Positions 273-42,285 of a DNA stretch of 56,926 nt are shown piece by piece. The position numbers were made by a program, and so were the translations under genes. A model generated the notes under the pieces. That model made no database searches, was not told the DNA's origin, and saw only the letters and a list, made by a program, of their open reading frames with translations. The stretch lies in the IMG/VR virus record IMGVR_UViG_3300025120_000062, positions 1 through 56,926 of that record; one strand, 5' to 3'. The DNA comes from a virus (taxonomy: Duplodnaviria; Caudoviricetes). Numbering within the stretch: position 1 is the stretch's first letter; every line of letters begins with the position of its first letter.

Positions 273-3200
273 TAGGGTCTCCTTCTTCCTGCTAAGTTCA
301 TAATTCCATCTCTATATATAGCACCACCACGTTTAGCTGTAGCAATGGCTCCGTAAATATTTCCACCTGCTAAAGCCGCACGCTGTTGTGGGTTTAACTG
401 ACCTCGTTGTGATCCACCCAAAGGTCTAAAAGGAGATGACATATTACTTGCCATAGGTTTAGTTTTAATTTCACCTGATACATTGTTTGATTGATTATTA
501 CTTCTAGGAAAATTAGGTGCATATGTTTTTGGAGGTACAATTTGTTTATTATCCGGTGCCCCTGGTGCAGGAGCTATTTTTTCTTCAACAGGCATTGTAG
601 GCTCTGACCCTACATTTTGATTCTTGAATAAATATCGTAATACTTCTTCAGGATCTTCAAAATCTATACCTTCTAATTCAGGGTCTAGTGATTCATCACT
701 AAATATCACTCGAGATAACTTAATCCAATTAGATCTTCTTACTTTCTGATCAAGTGTGTCGTCCATTACCTTTACCATCCAGTTTAAATTCTCAGGACTA
801 GATAAAATTTTAGAATTTTTTTTAGCAAGTAGGGCTATGGCTAATCCTCCTAAGGGACCTATGCCTGTACTTGTTGCAAGAAATGCTCCACCTATTCCAG
901 AAAAACCTGCAAGAGCGGCACGACGAGCAACGAAAGAAGATGTATCTGCTAATTTAGTTGCAAAACCTACTTCAGCAATCCTAAGTAAATCATTTAAATT
1001 TCTAACAGCAGCTTCACCGCCCTCTTTAGATAGTTTTTTACCATTAGCTGCCATGGTTTGTGCCCATATTTCTTTCATAAATTCTGTGCCATTAAGAGAA
1101 TTTAAACCTAATTTAGCTCTAAATTTAGTTGGATCAAATACATTTACTGTAATATATTCTGGATTAAAACCACTTTGTGCAGAATCTATTGCATAATCTA
1201 AAGAACTTTCAAGACCAATCTTTGAGTTAATGTCTTGTCTACCTTGTAAAACAGCACCCGTTTTTGGATTGTAAGCCACAGGAACAGAAGAAGAGTCGTA
1301 TATTTCACTTAAATATGCTCGAGTTTGTACATTAATAGGATCAAGTTCAGGATTTTTGTAATTTCTAGTTACAATTTTTGATAAATCTTTCAAAGCTTCT
1401 CTACTTGGATTACCACTTTTAAAAGTATCAAAAATATATTTAGACAATTGATCTGAATACATAAAACCTGATTTAGGTAAAGCACCTGCTATAAACATAT
1501 TTTGATCAACTAATTCAAATGCTTTTGCTAGAGGTGTTGTGTAATTATTTGCTCCAAAACCAAAAACTTCGTTTGCCCTTAATAAAGAAGTTTTAACAAA
1601 TTTCATTTGTTGTTCTAATGCTGGATCAGGTAATCCACCTTGACCAACAGGAAGTCTCCATTCTTTAATATCATTCAAACCTTCTTCTAATGCATTTTTA
1701 AAATATCTTGCTTGACTTGCTAAATCATCTCCTTCTTTAACTCCAAATTTTGTTGCATATTCAGCCCATTTTTGATTAAATTGTTTTTGTAAACCTCTAA
1801 ATTGCACTGCTCCAATAAAATCCTCTGTTCTTCCTAAGTCCAATAAAAAAATTTCAAAATCAGTTAAGTTTTTGCCACCACCGATTGTATCTGCACCTGC
1901 TCTACCTTCAGGGTATCCTCTAAGAGGCACTGTACTTGCTTTTATTTGTTCTTCATACGCTTGAGCTAAAGTCTTTATTCTGTAAGTTGGTATGTATCCA
2001 CTAGGCACAGCAGAATCCATTGCCATCGCTTTTTTAAAAAAATCATCATACATTTTAGCCGATACTCTTTCAAAAATTTTAAATTTTTCTTTAGCTTTTT
2101 CTGTTATTAACATTCCTGCATCCATAGCATGAGACATAGGAGCTAACTCATTTAATGTTTCTTGAACACGTTTGTCAGTGTAATACTGTATTTGTGCTCT
2201 ACTTGCACGAATGTCTGTACCAATAAAAGGAAAAACACCTGCTACTTTAGGCCAAGCTTTAACCCAATTAAGAAAACCTCCATCTGAAACATCTTTAATT
2301 CCAAAAGGTATGTTTTGATCTAATGATAATTTTGCTAAGTCTTCAGCATTACTACCAGCTTTAATTCCATAAAAAGCTCTAATACCCTTTTTTCCTGCTT
2401 CAAATAAAGGATATAAACCTGCCGCTCCACCTGTAAACAAGGCAGCATTTCTAGCGTGAATAGCATTGACTACTTTTGGATCTGTTGAAAGTTCAGGATC
2501 TTCAATACCTTCTAGTTCTCTGTATATGGCATTTAATCCATCGTAAGCTGTTGCTGCAGAATAAGCTCCTACACCAGAAAAAGCTGATGCTTCTGCTACC
2601 ATAGTTTTTTTCTTTTTTGGATCTATTGCACTTGCTAAAAGTTTTTTATGACTTGCAAAAAGTAAAGGAAAGGTGGAAATAACATCTCCGAATATACTTA
2701 CATTTTTTTTGTTAATATCAGGAATATATCTCATTGCTGTATTTGATAAACCCATAAAACTGTCATCAAAATAATCTAAAACTTCACTTTCATTTCCTGG
2801 AAACATTTTATCAAAAGGGCCTTGTGGACCGTCTTGTCTTTCACCACTTCTATTCATGCCAAATATTGACTGCCAATTTCTTTTATCATTGTCAAGTTTT
2901 CCTCGCCAAGCTTTATTCTTTGCTTGTATAGGATCTGAAGCATACAGTCTATCCATCTCTGTCATTTTTTGTGCTGCACGTATAGCAGCTCCTGCTTGTA
3001 TTTGTTCCTCAGATAATTGATTGTAAGGAACGTTAGTCAAACCTACAGATTCTCTAATTGCATTTACATTATCAAGAACTAATTTTTTATCAGCTTCGTA
3101 CTTTTCAGCTTTTGTCATTTTATCAGTAAATTGTTCATTATTGAAAGAGAACTCTTTGTTTAAAAAATTTTCTTTATCTTCTACAGTAAACCTAATATCA

Positions 3201-34900: not shown

Positions 34901-35945
34901 AATCTTTTAAAACCTCACTAACTTCACCGTAAACAACACCTGGCTTTGTTTGTTTTAATAATACTTTTTCTGCTTCCTCTCTACTAAATTTAAAAGGTCT
35001 TGTAGTAGGATATTGATTTTGTACATAATCATAAAATTGTTTTTTACTAAACTCTTTTATATTGTTTAAACCAGGAGGAGGCTCTCCTGTATCTATATAA
35101 CGTTGAATTGTATCTTCAATTTTTTTTTGTGTTTTATTAGCTGAAGCTAATTGAAATTTTATTCTACCTGCACTTAAACTAGTGTCTTTACTACCACCTC
35201 CACCATCTCCTTTTTCAGGAGCTAGAGTTAACCTACCCTCATCTACTAATTTAGTATTAACAGGAGCGCCACTTGTGTATTTTTTTATGATTTGTAAATC
35301 ATCAAAATGTTTTTCTACTAAATCAGGATTGTTTACTATTTGTCCTATTTTAGATTTAGGTCCTATAGATTTTTGAATATTTTTAACTGCATTTATATAT
35401 TCAGGAGCAGCTTGTACCCCTTTAGCAGCAAAACCACCTATCCAAGCTTCAAGTGGTAATGCAAGTAAACTAAATGAATCCCATTTAGGTAGATCCGTTG
35501 TTCGTGATCCTTCTCTAACTTTTTTACCTGCTTGTACTCCTGGATCTAAAATAAATCCAAATAAAGACGACCATCCTTCTTTGAAGGACAGAGGTTGATA
35601 CATTAATCCAATTTCTTGTTCAGCTTTTCGAATTTGTTGTTCTGAAGGTCTCTCGTTAGGTAATAGTCCTAAATGAGATTCAATTAGTTTATTATTTTCA
35701 AATTTTTCATTTCCACTTTTCATTGAATTTTCGTTATAGAATTGACTTGCTATAGGAGCAACTGTTCTAGCTAATACATCGCCTGCCAAATCAACAGGAG
35801 CTTTGACAACATTAGCCATAAATTCTGACGATTTATCTAATTTATCTTGTTCTTCTTGATTTCTAAATTTTATAATGTCTTTGTATTTAGGTCCTGCTCT
35901 TACAGGCGCAAAACTTGCTAATCTACTATTGTTATTAACGGCCAT
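31929..35945 (-). CDS. large polyvalent-like (probably virion-packaged) protein
   Basis: 1338 aa; HTH-like NMAELARVLERDKATVQAAV; internal KAEGG linker; C-terminal domain with DEIQSD; C-terminal FKDGG. Confidence 0.6.
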   Translation of the reverse strand: MAVNNNSRLASFAPVRAGPKYKDIIKFRNQEEQDKLDKSSEFMANVVKAPVDLAGDVLARTVAPIASQFYNENSMKSGNEKFENNKLIESHLGLLPNERPSEQQIRKAEQEIGLMYQPLSFKEGWSSLFGFILDPGVQAGKKVREGSRTTDLPKWDSFSLLALPLEAWIGGFAAKGVQAAPEYINAVKNIQKSIGPKSKIGQIVNNPDLVEKHFDDLQIIKKYTSGAPVNTKLVDEGRLTLAPEKGDGGGGSKDTSLSAGRIKFQLASANKTQKKIEDTIQRYIDTGEPPPGLNNIKEFSKKQFYDYVQNQYPTTRPFKFSREEAEKVLLKQTKPGVVYGEVSEVLKDLENRPNMAELARVLERDKATVQAAVAKWESINGKLKVPKAAFKEQTFITKWARENPDFNLTKTRTPTTTKPGDRSELLLLEGFLRSSNARDFSKSSSMNREEFAEFYMNDFKTKFPNWKKTFAKDLKGIKRLEDQRVFAQRKINDMLKQYKENYPEQFKGVTLEGKGKTMDFTLNVSHDFPLRMDDPIPGVGGFVSSMRLNFGKTNVDTQRQIEIKLVNLKRDVESGKTSMEDAREIISKFDKINQRTGALTNITIKNPKYKDDVYEDFQVGAIDKPGVQTIIEAARREFEKIAKGPKPQIQKEGDLQRGFIKRRIPMPRQRGRGAAYQDKLRTKAEGGEIRGYAEGDQVMSEENQEPSSPNNESMLSKVGNFFIPQVEAAGLKGFFKPVFDWAMVGNPPKTVTNIQKSQQKVLANPRLASKTEPRFNVYGPEGQKVFQAKTYDEANEKALQLGNIENSTFRVEQVEVPVKVKKKKTGTQLTVTMTPDSVVGSGTNRLYYSRLSQALNSPTGNLTIKGQDVSRDSIAMPAKEWQDYFRSIGIKESELQDSYIRQYLNKKGGFNNKTQQFTLDAPITYDEIAELAGSSPSNFIQSSKYGDYAQNLKYGNSGRHVNYINGSREERVLWIDSQDIRGDVGYLPDEVRRYENHSSMRQVTDDFDFNVKNKLGGEPYVIGWSLNSNRLGTAATGKKIVVNTADEIQSDFLQKAASLKSQLKKDLQSLTEIETQRPDVLKETQERLENIFRPMPATLSEIQGEIEMLKKADEVFENISKMDLDRMTPTMFKMLDQASEIRDTALKNINNRIDSIDPSQLFPNIPFKNQKNWVDALIKNDVYEAAKKRFYFDENNALQINKNAPSHYTVAPAKAVKAANPTRGIKLDPTDPNRSGKHVAYDMQYGGPKAVDHTGAHFTSNSEESLRRIAKMKNSELSIGTVDFGDAGEKVETFLLELTPDMLTPYPQYFKDGGVVQKKNVYNPLLSINDVLRPIGVY

Positions 35946-37405
35946 TAATAATATTCCCCTTGTATTCTTGGTGTAGGCTCATCAACATAGTCAGTACCTA
36001 GTCTAATAAAATTTCCTTGTCTAAATCGCATTACCGCTTGTGTCATGCTGTCCACCAAGTCATCATGATCGCCGTATGGGAATGCAGCGCACTCCTCGAT
36101 GACGTCGTCCGACCACCTTGTTTCAGGTGTCCATATCATACCACTTTCAAACAATGGTGCAACAGAATTAACTCTGACATGTTTATCTTGTCCTTTACTA
36201 GGAGTATAGTTGACAACAGGAATTCCAAGTTGTCTTAACTCGTGTGTAAGAGGTGTTCCTGATGCTTTGGCTTCAATAATAATTGTTTCAGGTTCCCAAT
36301 ATTTATATTCTTTGAAAGCAATTTTTTTAAGCTCTGGAAAATCCCATCTGCCTCGTTTGGCATCTATAAGTATAAGATGAGGAACATTATTGGCTTTAGG
36401 ATAGAAAACTCCCCATGTAGTAATAGCAGAATAGTCTGCTGTTTCTTTTTTACTAAACGCTGTATCATAACTTTGAATAATGTGTTCTAGCTCAGGCATA
36501 GATTCTTCTTCCCACATTTGCCACCACTCTCGTTTAATAATTGAACCTTCTTGAGACACGGGTGATTGTTGCCACTGTGCATTCCACTTAGCTGCAGACA
36601 GAGAAGCTTTAACAGATTCTAATTCATCAATGTTCCAGAACCCTGGCCAAACGGGTTTGTTGCTTGGTAGAATAGCAGGGAACTCTACGACATCCCATTG
36701 ATCCGATTTTAGTTCTCCTTGCTTCTTCATTAACTTACCTGTCAGATCTTTCACGGACCAACGGGTCATAACAATAACAATTGCACCCCCTGGTTGTAAA
36801 CGCTGTCTAGGTCCTGAAGTATACCATTCGTATGCTGAGTCGAGGGCCGTGTCGCTTAGTGCGTCTTGCTCTGAATGTGGATCGTCGATAATTAACAGAT
36901 CAGCACCACGACCTGTTACTGCACCACCTGTACCTGCAGCGAAATATTCTCCACCTTGTAATGTTTCCCAACGACCTGCGGCCATACTATCAGGTTGTAA
37001 CTGAGTTTTGAAAATTTTTTTATACTCTTGAGTATCCATTAAGTTTCTAACTTTACGACCGAATCTAATAGCAAGTTCTCCTGTGTGAGTGGTTTGCATA
37101 ATTTTTGCTTTTGGGTTTTGGCCCACGAACCACGCAGGGAACAAGAAGGATGCAAACTCAGACTTCGTGTGTCTAGGTGGCATGTTAATAATTAATCTTT
37201 TTAATTTACCAGAGGCAATATCTTCAAATTTTTTTGCAATAATTTTATGGTGGGTCCCTTCTTTAAACTCAGGCCAAACATTTCTTACAAATGCTAAAAA
37301 TTTTTTTTGTGATTGCTCTTGAACATTAAATTCTAATTTTTTAATTTTTAATTTTTTTGCAAGGACCTTAGCTTCATCTGTTGTTAAAGTTTCTATAGAT
37401 TCCAT
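35945..37405 (-). CDS. terL: terminase large subunit
   Basis: Walker A-like NMPPRHTKS; Walker B LLIIDDP; motif III VMTRW; nuclease SYDTA...HDDLVDS. Confidence 0.92.
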   Translation of the reverse strand: MESIETLTTDEAKVLAKKLKIKKLEFNVQEQSQKKFLAFVRNVWPEFKEGTHHKIIAKKFEDIASGKLKRLIINMPPRHTKSEFASFLFPAWFVGQNPKAKIMQTTHTGELAIRFGRKVRNLMDTQEYKKIFKTQLQPDSMAAGRWETLQGGEYFAAGTGGAVTGRGADLLIIDDPHSEQDALSDTALDSAYEWYTSGPRQRLQPGGAIVIVMTRWSVKDLTGKLMKKQGELKSDQWDVVEFPAILPSNKPVWPGFWNIDELESVKASLSAAKWNAQWQQSPVSQEGSIIKREWWQMWEEESMPELEHIIQSYDTAFSKKETADYSAITTWGVFYPKANNVPHLILIDAKRGRWDFPELKKIAFKEYKYWEPETIIIEAKASGTPLTHELRQLGIPVVNYTPSKGQDKHVRVNSVAPLFESGMIWTPETRWSDDVIEECAAFPYGDHDDLVDSMTQAVMRFRQGNFIRLGTDYVDEPTPRIQGEYY

Positions 37406-37653: not shown

Positions 37654-37938
37654 TTAAGAGTTTAACCTTTCATTAATGTTAAATCTTTCAGCAAGACCTT
37701 GCATGATCTTCTGTCCAAATCTTTTGACTTCAGGCGTATTGGAAGTCATTACAAATTCAAATATCTCATAGTCGAGATACTGACATACGGCTTGATAGTT
37801 AATCACTTCACTATCAGGAAGTTGAATAGAACTATTCTGTTTTAATAGAATGTCCTTCTTCACTTTTTCCATTTCGTGTTTAATCACGAGTTGGATGTCA
37901 CTTAGAGTTAAGTCATTTGACATAGTATATTTCTCCAT
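37654..37938 (-). CDS. hypothetical protein (cassette 1, probably early)
   Basis: 94 aa with its own promoter and terminator; alternative start MSNDL at 37923 after a GGAG. Confidence 0.6.
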   Translation of the reverse strand: MEKYTMSNDLTLSDIQLVIKHEMEKVKKDILLKQNSSIQLPDSEVINYQAVCQYLDYEIFEFVMTSNTPEVKRFGQKIMQGLAERFNINERLNS

Positions 37939-37942
37939 TTCT

Positions 37943-37977
37943 ATCCTAACTTTATAGGAAGAATATCAAAAACACAA
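37943..37977 (-). promoter_or_regulatory. sigma70-type promoter with ATCCTA-N6-TAGGA palindrome over the -10
   Basis: TTGTGT-17bp-TAAAGT; same geometry as 38789 and 39286. Confidence 0.55.
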
Positions 37978-38413
37978 CACCTATTATAAAAAAAGCTGCA
38001 CCTATTATAAAAAAGATTTCTGACAGCATTTGCTTTTGCATTTGCTTTTTCACAGCAACTCTCCCTCCCCCCTTCTCTTATATATATGTTACCACCACAT
38101 CATTACGAATCGAGCCAATGGAGAATGGCACACGCTGTGAATCGCATCTGAGCTTTAGCCGTGGCAACTTCTTATATATATTGGACTTGCAATCTGTAGC
38201 AATCGAGGTAATGCAGAAACTCTGGGCAGGGGACTGGGCTGGGTATTTATATACATATTGCCCATATAATCTGTAGGGATCGAGGTAATGGAGAATGCAA
38301 AACTCTGAGCTGGAGACTGGGTGCTACTTTTATATATACATATTGCCCATATAATCTGTAGGGATCGAGGTAATGGAGATTAAAAAAGAATGTGAAACAA
38401 CAAAAGAAGGTGA

Positions 38414-38437
38414 GGTTCTGCCCAAACGAGCAGAACC
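38414..38437 (-). terminator. probable terminator of cassette 2
   Basis: GGTTCTGC/GCAGAACC stem followed by a T-rich tail on the minus strand. Confidence 0.6.
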
Positions 38438-38457
38438 AAGAAAATTAAATACTTCAC

Positions 38458-38772
38458 TTAGTCGGTTAGCATAGTTTGCATTGTGTGCCAAGCATCGGAG
38501 GTATTATCAACTATAATTTTTGCTCCGTCGTACCAATCCAAGAACCAATACTCTAACCGATGTAATTGTTTGTGCTCGTTTACATATCCTCGCAGCTCAT
38601 CTCCTGGACCACCCCACGAAAATTGCCAACGCCAATACCCTTCGGGTTGACTGTCCCAGGTATGCGGTTCAACATAATCGAACCCGAGAGACTCAAACTC
38701 TGGATCTTTTAAATCTTCTTGTCTGTCGACCCAGTGTCCCTGGACTCTTTGTTCACATGATTTTTGTTTCAT
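38458..38772 (-). CDS. hypothetical protein (cassette 2, Trp-rich)
   Basis: 104 aa; YWRWQFSWGGPGDELR...EYWFLDWYDGA; AAGGAG RBS; own promoter. Confidence 0.75.
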   Translation of the reverse strand: MKQKSCEQRVQGHWVDRQEDLKDPEFESLGFDYVEPHTWDSQPEGYWRWQFSWGGPGDELRGYVNEHKQLHRLEYWFLDWYDGAKIIVDNTSDAWHTMQTMLTD

Positions 38773-38788
38773 TCTTCATTCTCCTTTT

Positions 38789-38823
38789 ATCCTATTAATA
38801 TAGGACATTAACGCAGCTGTCAA
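38789..38823 (-). promoter_or_regulatory. sigma70-type promoter with operator palindrome
   Basis: TTGACA-17bp-TATTAA, with the -10 inside ATCCTATTAATATAGGA. Confidence 0.7.
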
Positions 38824-39094
38824 GCAGCTTATATTACCATCGTAGCTCCTGCCGTGCTGCTTTTATATATAATAGTGCCTAGATCCGTGATAAATCGAGC
38901 CGATGGAGAACGGCTTCTAGACATCACCAAACAGCTGCCGGCTTCTTTTATATAGGATAGTGGTACAAAATGACGATAAATCGAGCCAATGGAGAACGGA
39001 CTTTAACATCTCACACGCATCTTCCAGGGGGGTACTTTTAAATATAGAGTATTAGTATGAAGGGGATTGATTTACGGACAATGGAGATTGATGA

Positions 39095-39285
39095 AGGGGA
39101 AGGGCGATATCATCATTACTGCAGAAACCTTCCCCTAGATCTAGAGTTCCTATTATACAACTATTGTCACTCCTAACCAAATCAGAATACAGATCAACCT
39201 TAACGCTACACAGAGAGGATTGATTAAGTAAATACCCAGCATCAATAAAGATGCGTGTAGTCTTAACATTACATTCTGTATTCAT
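39095..39285 (-). ncRNA. candidate structured small RNA (cassette 3)
   Basis: starts at the predicted TSS; nested stems 39275-83/39185-93, 39255-60/39206-11 and 39250-54/39239-43; 3' stem 39128-36/39095-103. Confidence 0.55.
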
Positions 39286-39320
39286 ATCCTATTAATATAG
39301 GATAATGGAGAACTTGTCAA
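39286..39320 (-). promoter_or_regulatory. sigma70-type promoter with operator palindrome
   Basis: TTGACA-17bp-TATTAA; ATCCTA-TTAATA-TAGGAT inverted repeat. Confidence 0.7.
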
Positions 39321-39518
39321 ATGTTTTTACCTGGAAGCACACCTGAGCTGCCGGTTTCTTTTATATATAGTATTAGTGCAAAAAGATTAGGTCAGCTGTA
39401 ATGGAGAACAGTCAGGATAATCAGCCACGCCACGGGCTTGCGGATCCAGGGGGCTTTTATATAAATAATCAAGGCTATAAGTAAAGTTGCCAAGAGGCAA
39501 TGGAGAAATATGCTTAAC

Positions 39519-39555
39519 ATCTCATTAATATAGGATAAAGAAGTGCAGCTGTCAA
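39519..39555 (-). promoter_or_regulatory. variant promoter/operator with no obvious cargo
   Basis: TTGACA-17bp-TATATT; ATCTCA-TTAATA-TAGGAT. Confidence 0.5.
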
Positions 39556-39584
39556 GCCCCATCCGGCATCTCCTGCAGCTTTTA

Positions 39585-40028
39585 TTATGTATCTATAGCC
39601 ACGGGCGATGATTCCCCGTAATGGAGAACAGGGTCCAGACATCTCAGCAGGAGCTCCTGGTCCCATGGATAAGGTATTATGGCCATGGGAGGAGTATCTA
39701 GTCCCGTAATGGAGATTTCACGGGCATTGGCTCCCGAATATATGTAGAGCCCCCTCCCCCCGAGGGCCTCTGCCATAATGAAGTTATTCCCACCTGCCAT
39801 ATTATAGCTGTAATTCCACGCAATTTGCTTCGGCGTTATACTTATCTTTTTCACACGGGTACATTTTAACTCTGCCCAAAACATGACGGAATCACCCATA
39901 TCATTCTTAAAAACACCGTGTAAATCAGGTACTCCTGGAGAACTTGTAGATTCAATTCTAGTCCAATGTATTCTCGGAGTGACTTCTTTCAGTTTTTTCC
40001 AAAATCTAGTCTCAGGTTTTGCTACCAT
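39585..40028 (-). CDS. VRR-NUC-like / Holliday-junction resolvase-like PD-(D/E)XK nuclease
   Basis: PETRFW...TRIES...GVPDL...FWAELK...PKQIAW. Confidence 0.7.
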   Translation of the reverse strand: MVAKPETRFWKKLKEVTPRIHWTRIESTSSPGVPDLHGVFKNDMGDSVMFWAELKCTRVKKISITPKQIAWNYSYNMAGGNNFIMAEALGGRGLYIYSGANAREISITGLDTPPMAIIPYPWDQELLLRCLDPVLHYGESSPVAIDT

Positions 40029-40170
40029 GCATCACCATTAGCTTTGGTTTACTCAACAATAAATCTTTATGATGCTTATCCCACATCTCATAAAAACCAT
40101 ACTTATTATCTTTTACGTTATTTTTAACTCTGCTTAATTTAGTCAATCGTGTTGTTTTTAGTTTATCCAT
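40012..40170 (-). CDS. small hypothetical protein (52 aa)
   Basis: MDKLKTTRLTKLSRVK...; overlaps both neighbours. Confidence 0.45.
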   Translation of the reverse strand: MDKLKTTRLTKLSRVKNNVKDNKYGFYEMWDKHHKDLLLSKPKLMVMHGSKT

Positions 40171-41167
40171 TTCTTTCTGCCTCCAATATTGATAGTGCTA
40201 TGTAGTAAGGTATTTGTGGTACAAGACTATTACCTAATGATTTAAGTCTGTCCATTGTGTCGGGTAACCCATCAGCCACTCTACCCACGTTGGGTTCAAC
40301 TTTCCACCAGGCGCTCCCTCTTGATATGCCATCTCTGTTTCCAAATACTTCTTGTGTCTCAGTTTTGCCATGTTCTCTGTCAATCTCATATTCATCCCTA
40401 TAGCTGCTCTCGGTGTCGGCCACATTGCCACTTTCTCCTCTAATTTTGCTCCTAGAAAACCTCTCTTCTTTACTCTTTTCTGTGTTGAGTTTAAATTTTC
40501 GTTCATGGCTGCTGATGCTCTCGGTGTCGGCCATAATCTTGGTTCCATCACTTGATCCTGAAGTCGTATCTGTATTTGGTGACCAGAACTCCTCTTCAAA
40601 TGTCCCTGATCTAATGCCTTCTTGATCCCCGGTAGATTGGATCCACCCACCACGTGATCGGGAGTCCTCCACATTTTTGTTTGCAATGATCCAGATTCTT
40701 TCCCTTTTGTGGTTGGCACCGACGCTAGCAGCTGAAATACTAAACGTCCTTGTGGAGTAACCTTCACTCTCCAAGTTCTCGAGGACTGTGTCGAGACCGA
40801 GTTTAATGTGTCCAGCAACGTTTTCTCCAATAACCCAAGTTGGCCTGAGTTCTTTGATAAGTCTAAACATTTCTGGCCAAACGTGTCTCGGATCTTGCTC
40901 ACCTTTTTGCTTACCTGCAACGGAGAAAGGTTGGCAAGGGTATCCTCCTGTGATAATGTCGATTTTATTAATTCCATTTGATTTAAGTTTTTCACTATTT
41001 AACTCCTTTACATCTTCATATATTGGCACAAGAGGCCAATGCTTTCTTAATACTTGTTGTGGAAACTTACTGTAATCACAAAAAGCTACTGTTTCAAATT
41101 CTCCTGTTGCTTCTAGTCCTAAACTAAAACCACCAATACCAGAAAATAGATCTAAATGTTTATACAT
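40163..41167 (-). CDS. DNA (cytosine-5)-methyltransferase, alpha-type subunit
   Basis: motif I LDLFSGIGG, IV GYPCQPFS, VI ENV, VIII RERIW, X DRLKSLGNS; motif IX is missing in this frame; likely start MYKHL at 41167. Confidence 0.9.
   Translation of the reverse strand: MYKHLDLFSGIGGFSLGLEATGEFETVAFCDYSKFPQQVLRKHWPLVPIYEDVKELNSEKLKSNGINKIDIITGGYPCQPFSVAGKQKGEQDPRHVWPEMFRLIKELRPTWVIGENVAGHIKLGLDTVLENLESEGYSTRTFSISAASVGANHKRERIWIIANKNVEDSRSRGGWIQSTGDQEGIRSGTFEEEFWSPNTDTTSGSSDGTKIMADTESISSHERKFKLNTEKSKEERFSRSKIRGESGNVADTESSYRDEYEIDREHGKTETQEVFGNRDGISRGSAWWKVEPNVGRVADGLPDTMDRLKSLGNSLVPQIPYYIALSILEAERNG
40234..40995 (-). CDS. C5-methyltransferase beta-type subunit in an alternative frame (EcoHK31I-like)
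   Basis: 253-aa nested same-strand ORF ending LNPTWVEWLMGYPTQWTD (motif IX-like); WRTP/WPTP/WPTP repeats. Confidence 0.75.
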   Translation of the reverse strand: MKNLNQMELIKSTLSQEDTLANLSPLQVSKKVSKIRDTFGQKCLDLSKNSGQLGLLEKTLLDTLNSVSTQSSRTWRVKVTPQGRLVFQLLASVPTTKGKESGSLQTKMWRTPDHVVGGSNLPGIKKALDQGHLKRSSGHQIQIRLQDQVMEPRLWPTPRASAAMNENLNSTQKRVKKRGFLGAKLEEKVAMWPTPRAAIGMNMRLTENMAKLRHKKYLETEMAYQEGAPGGKLNPTWVEWLMGYPTQWTDLNH

Positions 41168-41561
41168 CTTTGGGTATAAAGATAGGACTGTGTCCACCTT
41201 TAGCCGCAAGTTCTGTATCTATATATTTAAACTCTTCTTTGTTTCTAACAGAGTGTCCTGTGTAAACAATATCCCTTAATTGTATAGGTGAAATCATTTC
41301 ATGTGTTCTATCTGTAAATACAATAACATACACATGAGTTTCACTTGATATTGTTTTAACTTTCCAGCGTTTAAATCGGTGAACAGTTTTGTTATATGAT
41401 TTAGATATATATTCTTCCATTTTAGATTTACCTAAAATGCGTTTATCATCATCTTCAAATAAAACACGCCAAATAGGCTCTTCAAACAAATTTGTTCCTG
41501 GATTAATATCTCCTTCATTATCTTGTAAAATGCCTTTTATTTTTTTACTCATGCTGTCCAA
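41160..41561 (-). CDS. hypothetical protein
   Basis: 133 aa; overlaps the MTase start. Confidence 0.6.
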   Translation of the reverse strand: MDSMSKKIKGILQDNEGDINPGTNLFEEPIWRVLFEDDDKRILGKSKMEEYISKSYNKTVHRFKRWKVKTISSETHVYVIVFTDRTHEMISPIQLRDIVYTGHSVRNKEEFKYIDTELAAKGGHSPIFIPKDV

Positions 41562-41817: not shown

Positions 41818-42285
41818 TTATTTGTCAGGAATTTCAGTAACTTCAGCATCTTCTATATTAATGCTAAATTGTTTTTCTATTTCTTTAAGTTTTTCTTCTA
41901 CCTCAACCTTAGATAGTTGATCAATAGATCCTGTCAATATTTCTTTTCTGTCAATATAAAGTCCTGCAGCTTGACCTCTAGATTTCTCAGCTGCCACTGC
42001 TGCCGCCCAATTGCCATCTCCTTCAGCTCCTCTAGACAAATCATCTAATCGTTTAATGTGTCTAGAATAACTAACTTTATACTTTTCTTGCCATTCTCTA
42101 CGAAGTTTTTCAATTTCTTCTACTACAAGAGGAAACATTTTAGGGTTTTGTAAATTTGATGCCTGTTGTTTACAAGCTTTTTCAGAATAGCCTGCTTCTT
42201 TTGCACAATCTGATGCTGACATTCTATCGCCTTTGCTGACAATAAGAGTAGCAAACTTTATTTGTTTTGGTGTTAATTTATTCAT
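41818..42285 (-). CDS. terS: terminase small subunit
   Basis: LTPKQIKFA...AKEAGYS...ASNL HTH followed by a helical oligomerisation region and GLY. Confidence 0.7.
   Translation of the reverse strand: MNKLTPKQIKFATLIVSKGDRMSASDCAKEAGYSEKACKQQASNLQNPKMFPLVVEEIEKLRREWQEKYKVSYSRHIKRLDDLSRGAEGDGNWAAAVAAEKSRGQAAGLYIDRKEILTGSIDQLSKVEVEEKLKEIEKQFSINIEDAEVTEIPDK

Follow-up and report, generated by a model that had tools for sequence, protein, structure and literature searches.

A conserved 101-nt structured RNA module behind a predicted early promoter of an HTVC023P-type pelagiphage

Introduction

The question raised by this locus is what kind of element occupies the minus strand between positions 39095 and 39285 of a viral genome of 56,926 bp, a complete IMG/VR virus record (estimated completeness 94 %) that was analysed over its whole length and is referred to throughout as the window. 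A preliminary description, made from the nucleotide sequence, had proposed a free small RNA (sRNA) of about 190 nt that begins at a promoter, ends at a 9-bp stem and exposes a CU-rich loop through which host or phage mRNAs might be repressed. The conserved element is a structured RNA domain of 101 nt (39185–39285, minus strand), herein termed module A, and it is this domain, with its partly buried CU-rich stretch, that forms the unit to study, not a terminated sRNA of 190 nt.

HTVC023P-type pelagiphages are presented, in the available text of two reports, as the known phage group with the highest abundance in marine viromes (10.1101/2019.12.14.876532, PMC12753301), with a podovirus morphology given in the first of these (10.1101/2019.12.14.876532). 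Few of their genes have an assigned function. Module A offers a handle on early gene control in the SAR11 host, which possesses few protein regulators, and the module, which is predicted to head early transcripts, travels as a cassette in the company of other structured modules. The main text of two pelagiphage papers (PMC9599517, PMC12753301) mentions no non-coding RNA, sRNA, promoter or intergenic features, and that of a third (10.1101/2019.12.14.876532) mentions no promoter or intergenic features. Within the part of the literature on pelagiphage small RNAs and riboswitches that was covered, no description of such an RNA was found.

Results and discussion

The phage and the surroundings of the element

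The large terminase encoded by the window displays 66.8 % identity to that of Pelagibacter phage HTVC027P and 58.7 % to that of HTVC023P, and on the basis of this kinship the window is assigned to the HTVC023P-type pelagiphages. An alphaproteobacterial host had been guessed in the preliminary description, and kinship to the Pelagibacter phages is consistent with this, the likely host being SAR11. Nearly all large ORFs of the window are carried by the minus strand (the principal features are collected in Table 1). The element itself is situated within a largely non-coding stretch whose G+C content is higher (0.418) than that of its surroundings (0.32–0.39). On one side this stretch is bounded by the gene for a 147-aa protein, named a putative nuclease by virtue of a motif read by eye; on the other, and in this order along the minus strand, lie a 94-aa ORF, the large terminase gene and the gene for a portal-like protein.

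Table 1. Positions of features discussed in the text (window coordinates)
Feature	Position	Strand	Remarks
Large terminase gene	35945–37405	minus	
Largely non-coding stretch, ~1.5 kb	38060–39585		between nuclease gene and 94-aa ORF
77-aa ORF	39052–39285	minus	overlaps the element; not regarded as a conserved gene
99-nt optional insert	39086–39184 (equivalently 39085–39183)	minus	absent in close variants
9-bp hairpin	39095–39141	minus	within the 99-nt insert
Hairpin B	39137–39179	minus	within the 99-nt insert
Module A	39185–39285	minus	101-nt structured RNA domain
P1, 3′ strand	39185–39192	minus	RNA positions 94–101
P2, 3′ strand (GGUUGAU)	39193–39199	minus	positions 87–93
GUGUAG	39206–39211	minus	positions 75–80; partner CUACAC
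CU-rich linker (CUCUCU)	39212–39217	minus	positions 69–74; unpaired in the revised model
P2, 5′ strand (AUCAAUC)	39218–39224	minus	positions 62–68; RNAalifold helix
P3 hairpin (GCAUC-UUUAUU-GAUGC)	39239–39254	minus	positions 32–47; pairs 32–36/43–47
CUACAC	39255–39260	minus	positions 26–31; partner GUGUAG
P1, 5′ strand	39276–39283	minus	RNA positions 3–10
Imperfect palindrome TATCCTAT-ATTA-ATAGGATA	39285–39304		overlaps the −10 region; repeat families D3/D8, inverted pair I2
−10-like hexamer (TATTAA)	39292–39297	minus	17-nt spacer from TTGACA
Alternative −10 (TATATT)	39294–39299	minus	15-nt spacer
−35 hexamer (TTGACA)	39315–39320	minus	read from the sequence
147-aa protein	39585–40028	minus	sole match PHROG 2165 (‘DNA helicase’)
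C5 cytosine methyltransferase, 348-aa ORF	40163–41209	minus	Pfam/PHROG matches
Small terminase	41818–42285	minus	Pfam/PHROG matches

Extent of the conserved element

Folding of the entire 39095–39285 region (minus strand) yields a minimum free energy (MFE) structure of −55.3 kcal/mol, with a z-score of −3.29 and 1 of 200 shuffles as good. All of this excess stability resides in the first 101 nt (39185–39285; z −5.25), with the last 100 nt folding no better than might be expected from their composition (z −0.41; 63 of 200 shuffles as good). The conserved block comprises the promoter plus the same 101 nt: in locus L002, positions 39375–39185 align at 80 %, and the similarity ends at 39185.

The notion of a single unit of about 190 nt does not hold, as its last 99 nt are an indel cassette that is missing from one phage locus and from one RNA-library contig. 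In the former (L033), the last base of the outer stem runs straight into a repeat unit, whilst the latter, from metatranscriptome library X1, joins 39184 to 39084. The 9-bp AGGGGAAGG/CCUUCCCCU stem that had been taken to close the 3′ end does form in the MFE structure, but it fails as a terminator, possessing a 24-nt loop and no U-run; no terminator-like site was predicted at 39085–39190, nor was any predicted after module A or after the 9-bp stem. Elements of the insert recur elsewhere. The core of hairpin B (39179–39137, 43 nt) is 95 % identical to positions 3011–3053 of L008, an otherwise different contig, in which the GGGGAAGG/CCTTCCCC hairpin is also found with the same stem and a different loop, and with its order relative to hairpin B reversed.

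Structure and covariation of module A

Relatives were gathered by pattern scans of viral and metagenome collections and by a search with the nuclease protein. The resulting alignment contains 10 distinct module A sequences from few lineages, and the covariation counts given below overstate the number of independent events, because these sequences share descent. Three helices (P1, P2 and P3) show complete pairing (100 % of cells) across the 10 sequences, and both-sided changes are seen in 6 pairs and 23 cells. Neither the observed paired fraction nor the covariation score was reached by any of 500 shuffles, and slid controls were only 24–46 % paired. The structured character that had been suggested for the element is thus borne out in module A, both by its folding score and by helices that covary in relatives.

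The outer stem, GAAUACAGA/UCUGUAUUC (P1), was correctly recognised from the window: it is present in the MFE structure and kept in every aligned sequence, with one pair (6/98) changed on both sides (CG in 5, UA in 4 and UG in 1 of the 10 sequences). The GCAUC/GAUGC hairpin (P3) is likewise found in every aligned sequence, with three of its five pairs changed on both sides (CG/UA/GC, GC/AU/GU and CG/UA). As for the set of helices said to be enclosed by P1, CUACAC/GUGUAG, GCAUC/GAUGC and UUAA/UUAA are all part of the MFE structure, but UUAA/UUAA does not survive comparison, being available in only 3 of the 10 distinct sequences. The CUACAC/GUGUAG helix is pairable in 100 % of cases with one-sided (wobble) changes only, and it is therefore compatible with the alignment but not proven.

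The largest departure from the original model is P2, a helix identified by RNAalifold in which AUCAAUC pairs with GGUUGAU. It is paired in 10 of 10 sequences, with both-sided changes at 63/92 (CG in 5, UA in 5) and 67/88 (UA in 5, CG in 3, UG in 2). The stretch AUCAAUCCUCUCU, previously viewed as an unpaired junction loop, is consequently free only in part: its CUCUCU half is indeed unpaired, but its AUCAAUC half belongs to the covarying helix, such that 7 of the 13 proposed seed bases lie within P2. The residues C68–U72 (CCUCU) do not vary in any of the 10 sequences and are left unpaired by the nested and revised models alike. Once P2 forms, CUACAC/GUGUAG, which was nested in the earlier model, would probably become a pseudoknot or loop–loop contact. 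Part of GGUUGAU has an alternative partner in UAAU at 39268–39271 (the UAAU/GUUG helix of the preliminary description), also 100 % paired; P2 is accordingly favoured but not proven, since UAAU/GUUG is likewise always pairable, and the two helices may alternate. The junction occurs as five different sequences, each matched to its partner. In L051, which is a recombinant, the junction type is matched to the 3′ partner, with an outer stem of the other type. Beyond the helices, module A harbours invariant unpaired stretches, namely AAUGUAAU, UUACUUAA, CCUCU and CGUUAAG.

It had also been claimed that the pairing works on the minus strand only. Thermodynamically this is not so (z −3.30 for the plus strand vs −3.29 for the minus), but comparison agrees with it, as 93.3 % of cells are paired on the minus strand vs 85.3 % on the plus, with a value of 81.4 % for P2 when counted on the reverse complement. 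The strand of module A is fixed as minus because pairing across relatives is lower on the reverse complement. Covariation alone cannot separate RNA from single-stranded DNA, as DNA hairpins tolerate G–T wobble, and this gives some room to an element acting at the DNA level, either as a minus-strand single-stranded fold (a signal for priming or recombination) or as a block conserved only because it is a hot spot at which cassettes are shuffled. The location of module A, in a mosaic region rich in repeats and indels, would suit such an element. However, module A keeps a constant orientation and location directly after promoters of three types, it is found in gene leaders of phages that have no repeat units, and it has no recombinase or replication gene associated with it, all of which renders a DNA-level role scarcely probable.

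Distribution amongst relatives

A covariance model built from the 10 distinct sequences detects exactly one copy of module A in each of 25 of the 34 sources, with scores of 105–127 bits (120.3 bits for the window); the copy in L040, cut off at the contig end, scores 53.6 bits. These 25 copies represent 11 distinct sequences, one of which contains a 32-nt internal duplication. With the same model, module A is absent from six close relatives (L009–L014; 87–88 % nuclease identity) and gives no match in the whole records of HTVC027P, HTVC023P, 023Pt_psg01, DSL-LC04 and G002. Module A is dispensable, since it is missing from the closest relatives and from both cultured isolates.

Two pattern scans of a bacterial and archaeal genome collection returned 0 and 6 stretches, and all 6 are chance matches (best 14.7 bits, E 0.83). 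A blastn search in distant mode with 37900–40100 produced no match amongst 50,697 GenBank phage records. Rfam 15 gave 0 matches at gathering scores across the whole window, and at E-values up to 10 the region 37800–39800 produced only a chance snoRNA match (37995–38059); ARAGORN detected neither tRNA nor tmRNA genes. No described Rfam family fits the element, and module A is, judging by these comparisons, a new RNA family, not represented in Rfam, of a kind already known. An 18-mer of its 5′ end was also encountered in L018–L021 and L024–L029 (10 loci of an unrelated, G+C-richer phage family) and in L022; in the 10 loci it sits inside a different local hairpin, and its recurrence was judged to be due to chance.

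Coding potential of the overlapping ORF

The 77-aa ORF that overlaps the element was described as having no recognisable features, and indeed it has no Pfam or PHROG match. Read from the invariant AUG, the ORF spans 34–77 aa in 13 distinct versions, and a 1-nt indel at column 50 of the alignment causes its 3′ half to be read in two frames. Variable columns before this indel fall on codon positions 1:2:3 in a ratio of 4:5:5, which amounts to no codon-position bias, and a hand count for L002 vs L023 gives 9 residue-changing codons and 3 silent ones. Homologues thus vary in frame and length rather than conserving a reading frame, and the original view of a non-coding structured RNA, as opposed to a protein gene, is upheld.

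These data also bear on the suggestion of a leaderless small protein, whereby the RNA would begin at the AUG and a short peptide would be made from it in leaderless fashion. In its favour, the invariant AUG is the predicted +1 in three promoter types, and the module is uninterrupted by a stop in either frame. Furthermore, leaderless starts seem to be used at this locus, since the promoter at 39555 places +1 at the AUG of a membrane-type ORF of 42 aa that is conserved as a protein in L013, L015 and L002. Everything recorded above for the ORF nevertheless weighs against this explanation (its range of lengths, C-terminal halves in two frames, the distribution of substitutions and the absence of Pfam or PHROG matches), as does sequestration of the G of the AUG by P1, making a leaderless product very improbable.

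Promoter and predicted transcript start

The TTGACA-17-TATTAA promoter noted in the preliminary description is present on the minus strand, with +1 placed at A39285 by the usual 7-nt rule; this residue is the A of the AUG, seven bases past TATTAA. The pattern TTGACA-N17-TATTAAT occurs 2 times in the window vs 0.29 expected, a count of 2 being reached by 5 of 100 shuffles. A generic promoter scan of the window did not list the site, because TATTAA lacks the final T. Promoters of three unrelated types (window, L023 and L048) each have a −10-like hexamer, located by eye, 5–7 nt before the invariant AUG, and the transcript of module A would start at the first base of the module or no more than about 2 nt from it. 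From its sequence, the promoter before module A reads as a host-type (sigma-70-like) early promoter.

The imperfect palindrome that covers the −10 region has the appearance of an operator. The combination of promoter and palindrome is found twice more in the window, near 38823 and 39555 (palindromes at approximately 38788–38813 and 39514–39543), and only one of these three like promoters carries module A. All three near-consensus promoters (38788–38823, 39285–39320 and 39514–39555, minus strand) have a common palindrome, TATCCTAT-N4-ATAGGATA, over the −10, which looks like a shared operator for one repressor. In L048-type phages, a different shared motif, tgggatattatgg, is found at the place of the palindrome.

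With regard to expression, five metatranscriptome runs share 5–14 % of sampled words with the window. Contigs assembled from them have a depth of 2–8 (about 3×) and extend over the nuclease gene just as over module A and its promoter, with one RNA-library contig reaching 39350, which lies 65 nt upstream of the predicted start. Due to this low-depth coverage, the contigs show neither start, end, strand nor true transcription, and they may be carried-over DNA; gaps in their coverage carry no meaning.

Genomic context and module shuffling

Module A is followed by seven different 3′ continuations in the 25 loci: module C (10 loci), the 99-nt insert (4 loci), module E (4 loci), a gene start within 14 nt (3 loci), module D (2 loci), nothing, with a repeat unit following directly (1 locus), and another sequence (1 locus). 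A Shine–Dalgarno sequence and ATG are situated 13–134 nt downstream, with no repeat unit between, in 11 of the 25 loci, which therefore display the arrangement of a cis-acting leader (promoter, module, then a gene on the same strand); the remaining 14 run into repeat units. The window is not one of the 11, as module A is followed by the 99-nt insert, repeat units and then the next promoter, 413 nt downstream, with no ORF before it. In L041 and L051 the promoter and module A are separated by a further module with a P1-like closing stem, and module A is thus not always 5′-terminal.

This additional module, module X, comprises 129 nt (L051 821–949, minus strand; also L041) and, like module A, starts with AUGAAUA and ends with GUAUUC, as if it were a second insert reusing the P1 closing stem. 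It gives no covariance-model match and folds with a z-score of −0.85. Compared with shuffles, modules C and D show moderately better folding (z −2.0 and −2.9, respectively), which is not the case for modules X and E. In L008 (2660–3210), a leader of approximately 520 nt between promoter and gene is built from the GGGGAAGG hairpin, hairpin B and module D in another order, and in L015 module E forms the 5′ leader of a gene. Such arrangements suggest a shared pool of shuffled leader modules.

The repeat units are direct copies of a sequence of approximately 80 nt, with at least 8 in 38060–39600 (minus strand) and others in L002, L013, L015, L033, L045 and L008. Each unit has a head (TTCTCCATTG, about 45 nt, then TATATAAAAG) followed by 35–45 variable, G+C-rich bases, and the head pattern is matched 8 times in the window vs 0.45 expected. 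The units flank every small cassette, with the head sometimes overlapping the last codons of the preceding gene. They are C-rich, and their folding as RNA does not exceed that of shuffles (z +1.69 and +0.11). Neither the HTVC027P locus (L052) nor the G001-type phages that retain module A contain them. A 17-mer motif of the repeat matched 6 stretches in viral contigs, the only relatives amongst them being L002 and L005. Cassette boundaries or recombination sites, or alternatively Rho-loading sites, are guesses as to their function. On informal comparison, a CRISPR-like array, integron attC sites, degenerate tRNA genes and iterons were each discarded for misfits of spacing, make-up or gene content.

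The CU-rich stretch and a possible action in trans

A trans-acting sRNA would require that module A, with or without its 3′ insert, be released and that its CU-rich stretch block Shine–Dalgarno regions in mRNAs of the host or the phage. Alphaproteobacteria, to which the likely host belongs, are known to possess sRNAs with CU-rich seeds. Module A has a strong, consensus-like promoter of its own (at a predicted position), the CCUCU seen in every sequence is unpaired in both structural models, and 14 of the 25 loci have no directly following gene. There is, however, no intrinsic terminator or conserved 3′ end, with seven sequences found after P1; 7 of the 13 seed bases are engaged in a covarying helix; and in 11 of the 25 loci the module lies within an mRNA leader. 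When duplexes were computed between the seed and 81 phage initiation regions, values as good as or better than the best of them were obtained with 26, 30 and 23 of 100 shuffled seeds, such that none of these regions stands out and the suggested repression of phage mRNAs finds no support. The resemblance to alphaproteobacterial sRNAs with CU-rich seeds is made up of the invariant CCUCU and the likely SAR11 host; unlike them, module A has no terminator, half of its seed paired, no phage target that stands out and no Rfam match. Release of module A as a free regulator is accordingly considered unlikely.

Possible roles of module A

The role favoured here, with about even confidence, is that of a modular cis-acting 5′ leader RNA, whose compact 5′-terminal fold would serve in protection, processivity or both. 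A leader acting in cis is preferred because of the constant position of module A at the head of the transcript, the free choice of downstream cargo and its presence in mRNA leaders. According to this proposal, a sigma-70-like early promoter would give rise to a transcript headed by module A at its 5′ end, in which P1 leaves only two 5′ bases free, P3 forms its hairpin and P2 stacks upon P1, taking half of the supposed seed, with CUACAC/GUGUAG adding a probable pseudoknot or loop–loop contact. Several structured modules, interchangeable with one another, would be lined up behind early promoters, and module A would be one of them. Its compact fold might protect a long, poorly translated early RNA from 5′-end-dependent decay and/or keep transcription going, in either case in cis and on its own transcript, and not as a free, terminated, base-pairing sRNA. 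Some observations sit uneasily with this. A plain hairpin would suffice for 5′ protection, and the many invariant unpaired bases, which point to a specific partner or a tertiary fold, are left unexplained by the mechanism. In addition, the module is not always 5′-terminal (L041, L051), and in the window no ORF follows it.

Those same invariant bases invite the thought of an aptamer or decoy, in which the junction and pseudoknot would bind a small molecule (as in a riboswitch) or a host protein, titrating or sensing it early in infection. A ribonuclease, RNA polymerase, a ribosome component or a defence sensor would be candidates for the protein, and a multi-helix junction with long invariant unpaired stretches, a probable loop–loop or pseudoknot contact, two mutually exclusive partners for GGUUGAU (as in switches) and a location at the start of early transcripts would all be in keeping with such a function. 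Conversely, no expression platform overlaps P1, there is neither a terminator nor a partner that sequesters a Shine–Dalgarno sequence, the 7 different neighbours share no downstream gene class, no Rfam family matches at E-values up to 10, and nothing points to a ligand or protein. This reading is thus held to be decidedly improbable.

A bolder form of the leader hypothesis, and on balance a rather unlikely one, regards module A as a mobile, self-contained RNA device, whose knotted three-helix 5′ fold would resist host decay or termination in the manner of exonuclease-resistant or polymerase-modifying viral RNAs. Were this to be true, interchangeable RNA modules would be swapped between genomes of the ocean’s most abundant phage group, constituting a non-coding counterpart of gene cassettes.

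Comparison with known systems

The ompA leader exemplifies the 5′-terminal stabilising stem–loops of bacterial and phage mRNAs. In common with these, module A opens with a helix 2 nt from the predicted 5′ end, the cargo is variable and 11 of 25 copies are found in leaders. Unlike them, module A is much larger and possesses invariant unpaired bases and a probable pseudoknot, with a stabilising role that is predicted. The put RNAs of phage HK022 are promoter-proximal RNA antiterminators, and as such are structured RNAs of approximately 100 nt that are transcribed first from early promoters and are independent of what lies downstream. Module A is likened to them by this description, rather than by sequence or structure; it differs in that no intrinsic terminators are predicted downstream of it, and in lying behind only 1 of the 3 like promoters of the window.

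For the surroundings of module A, the nearest described parallel is provided by PeSLs, which the available text of two papers on T4-type phages presents as mobile regulatory cassettes consisting of an early promoter and a stem–loop (PMC2839356, PMC4122927). As portrayed there, repeated regulatory sequences flank small variable cassettes within a hyperplastic region, and close relatives differ by insertion, deletion or replacement of whole cassettes; the corresponding elements here are module A, the 99-nt insert and small ORFs. In the window, 38060–39600 contains three promoters of like sequence together with at least 8 repeat units, but the units are not stem–loops. Going by the same portrayal, the differences are that the repeats of the window are C-rich sequences of approximately 80 nt that fold no better than shuffles and are not promoter–terminator stem–loops, that the cargo includes non-coding structured modules, and that the phage is an HTVC023P-type pelagiphage and not a T4-like myovirus.

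Additional features of the region

Two further ORFs on the minus strand merit description. The first is a hydrophobic ORF of 42 aa (MLSIFLHCLL...TVLHYS; 39392–39520), the AUG of which lies exactly at the +1 predicted from a TTGACA-17-TATATT promoter (39555–39527), and which has protein-level relatives in the same arrangement in L013, L015 and L002. Given this exact coincidence of AUG and predicted +1, it likely encodes a leaderless small membrane protein. The second, of 253 aa (40234–40995), lies in another frame and overlaps most of the methyltransferase ORF (40163–41209), an arrangement for which a frameshift and two overlapping genes are both possible explanations. Within this ORF the motif WPTPRA is duplicated, corresponding to direct repeat D9 (40391–40422 and 40502–40533).
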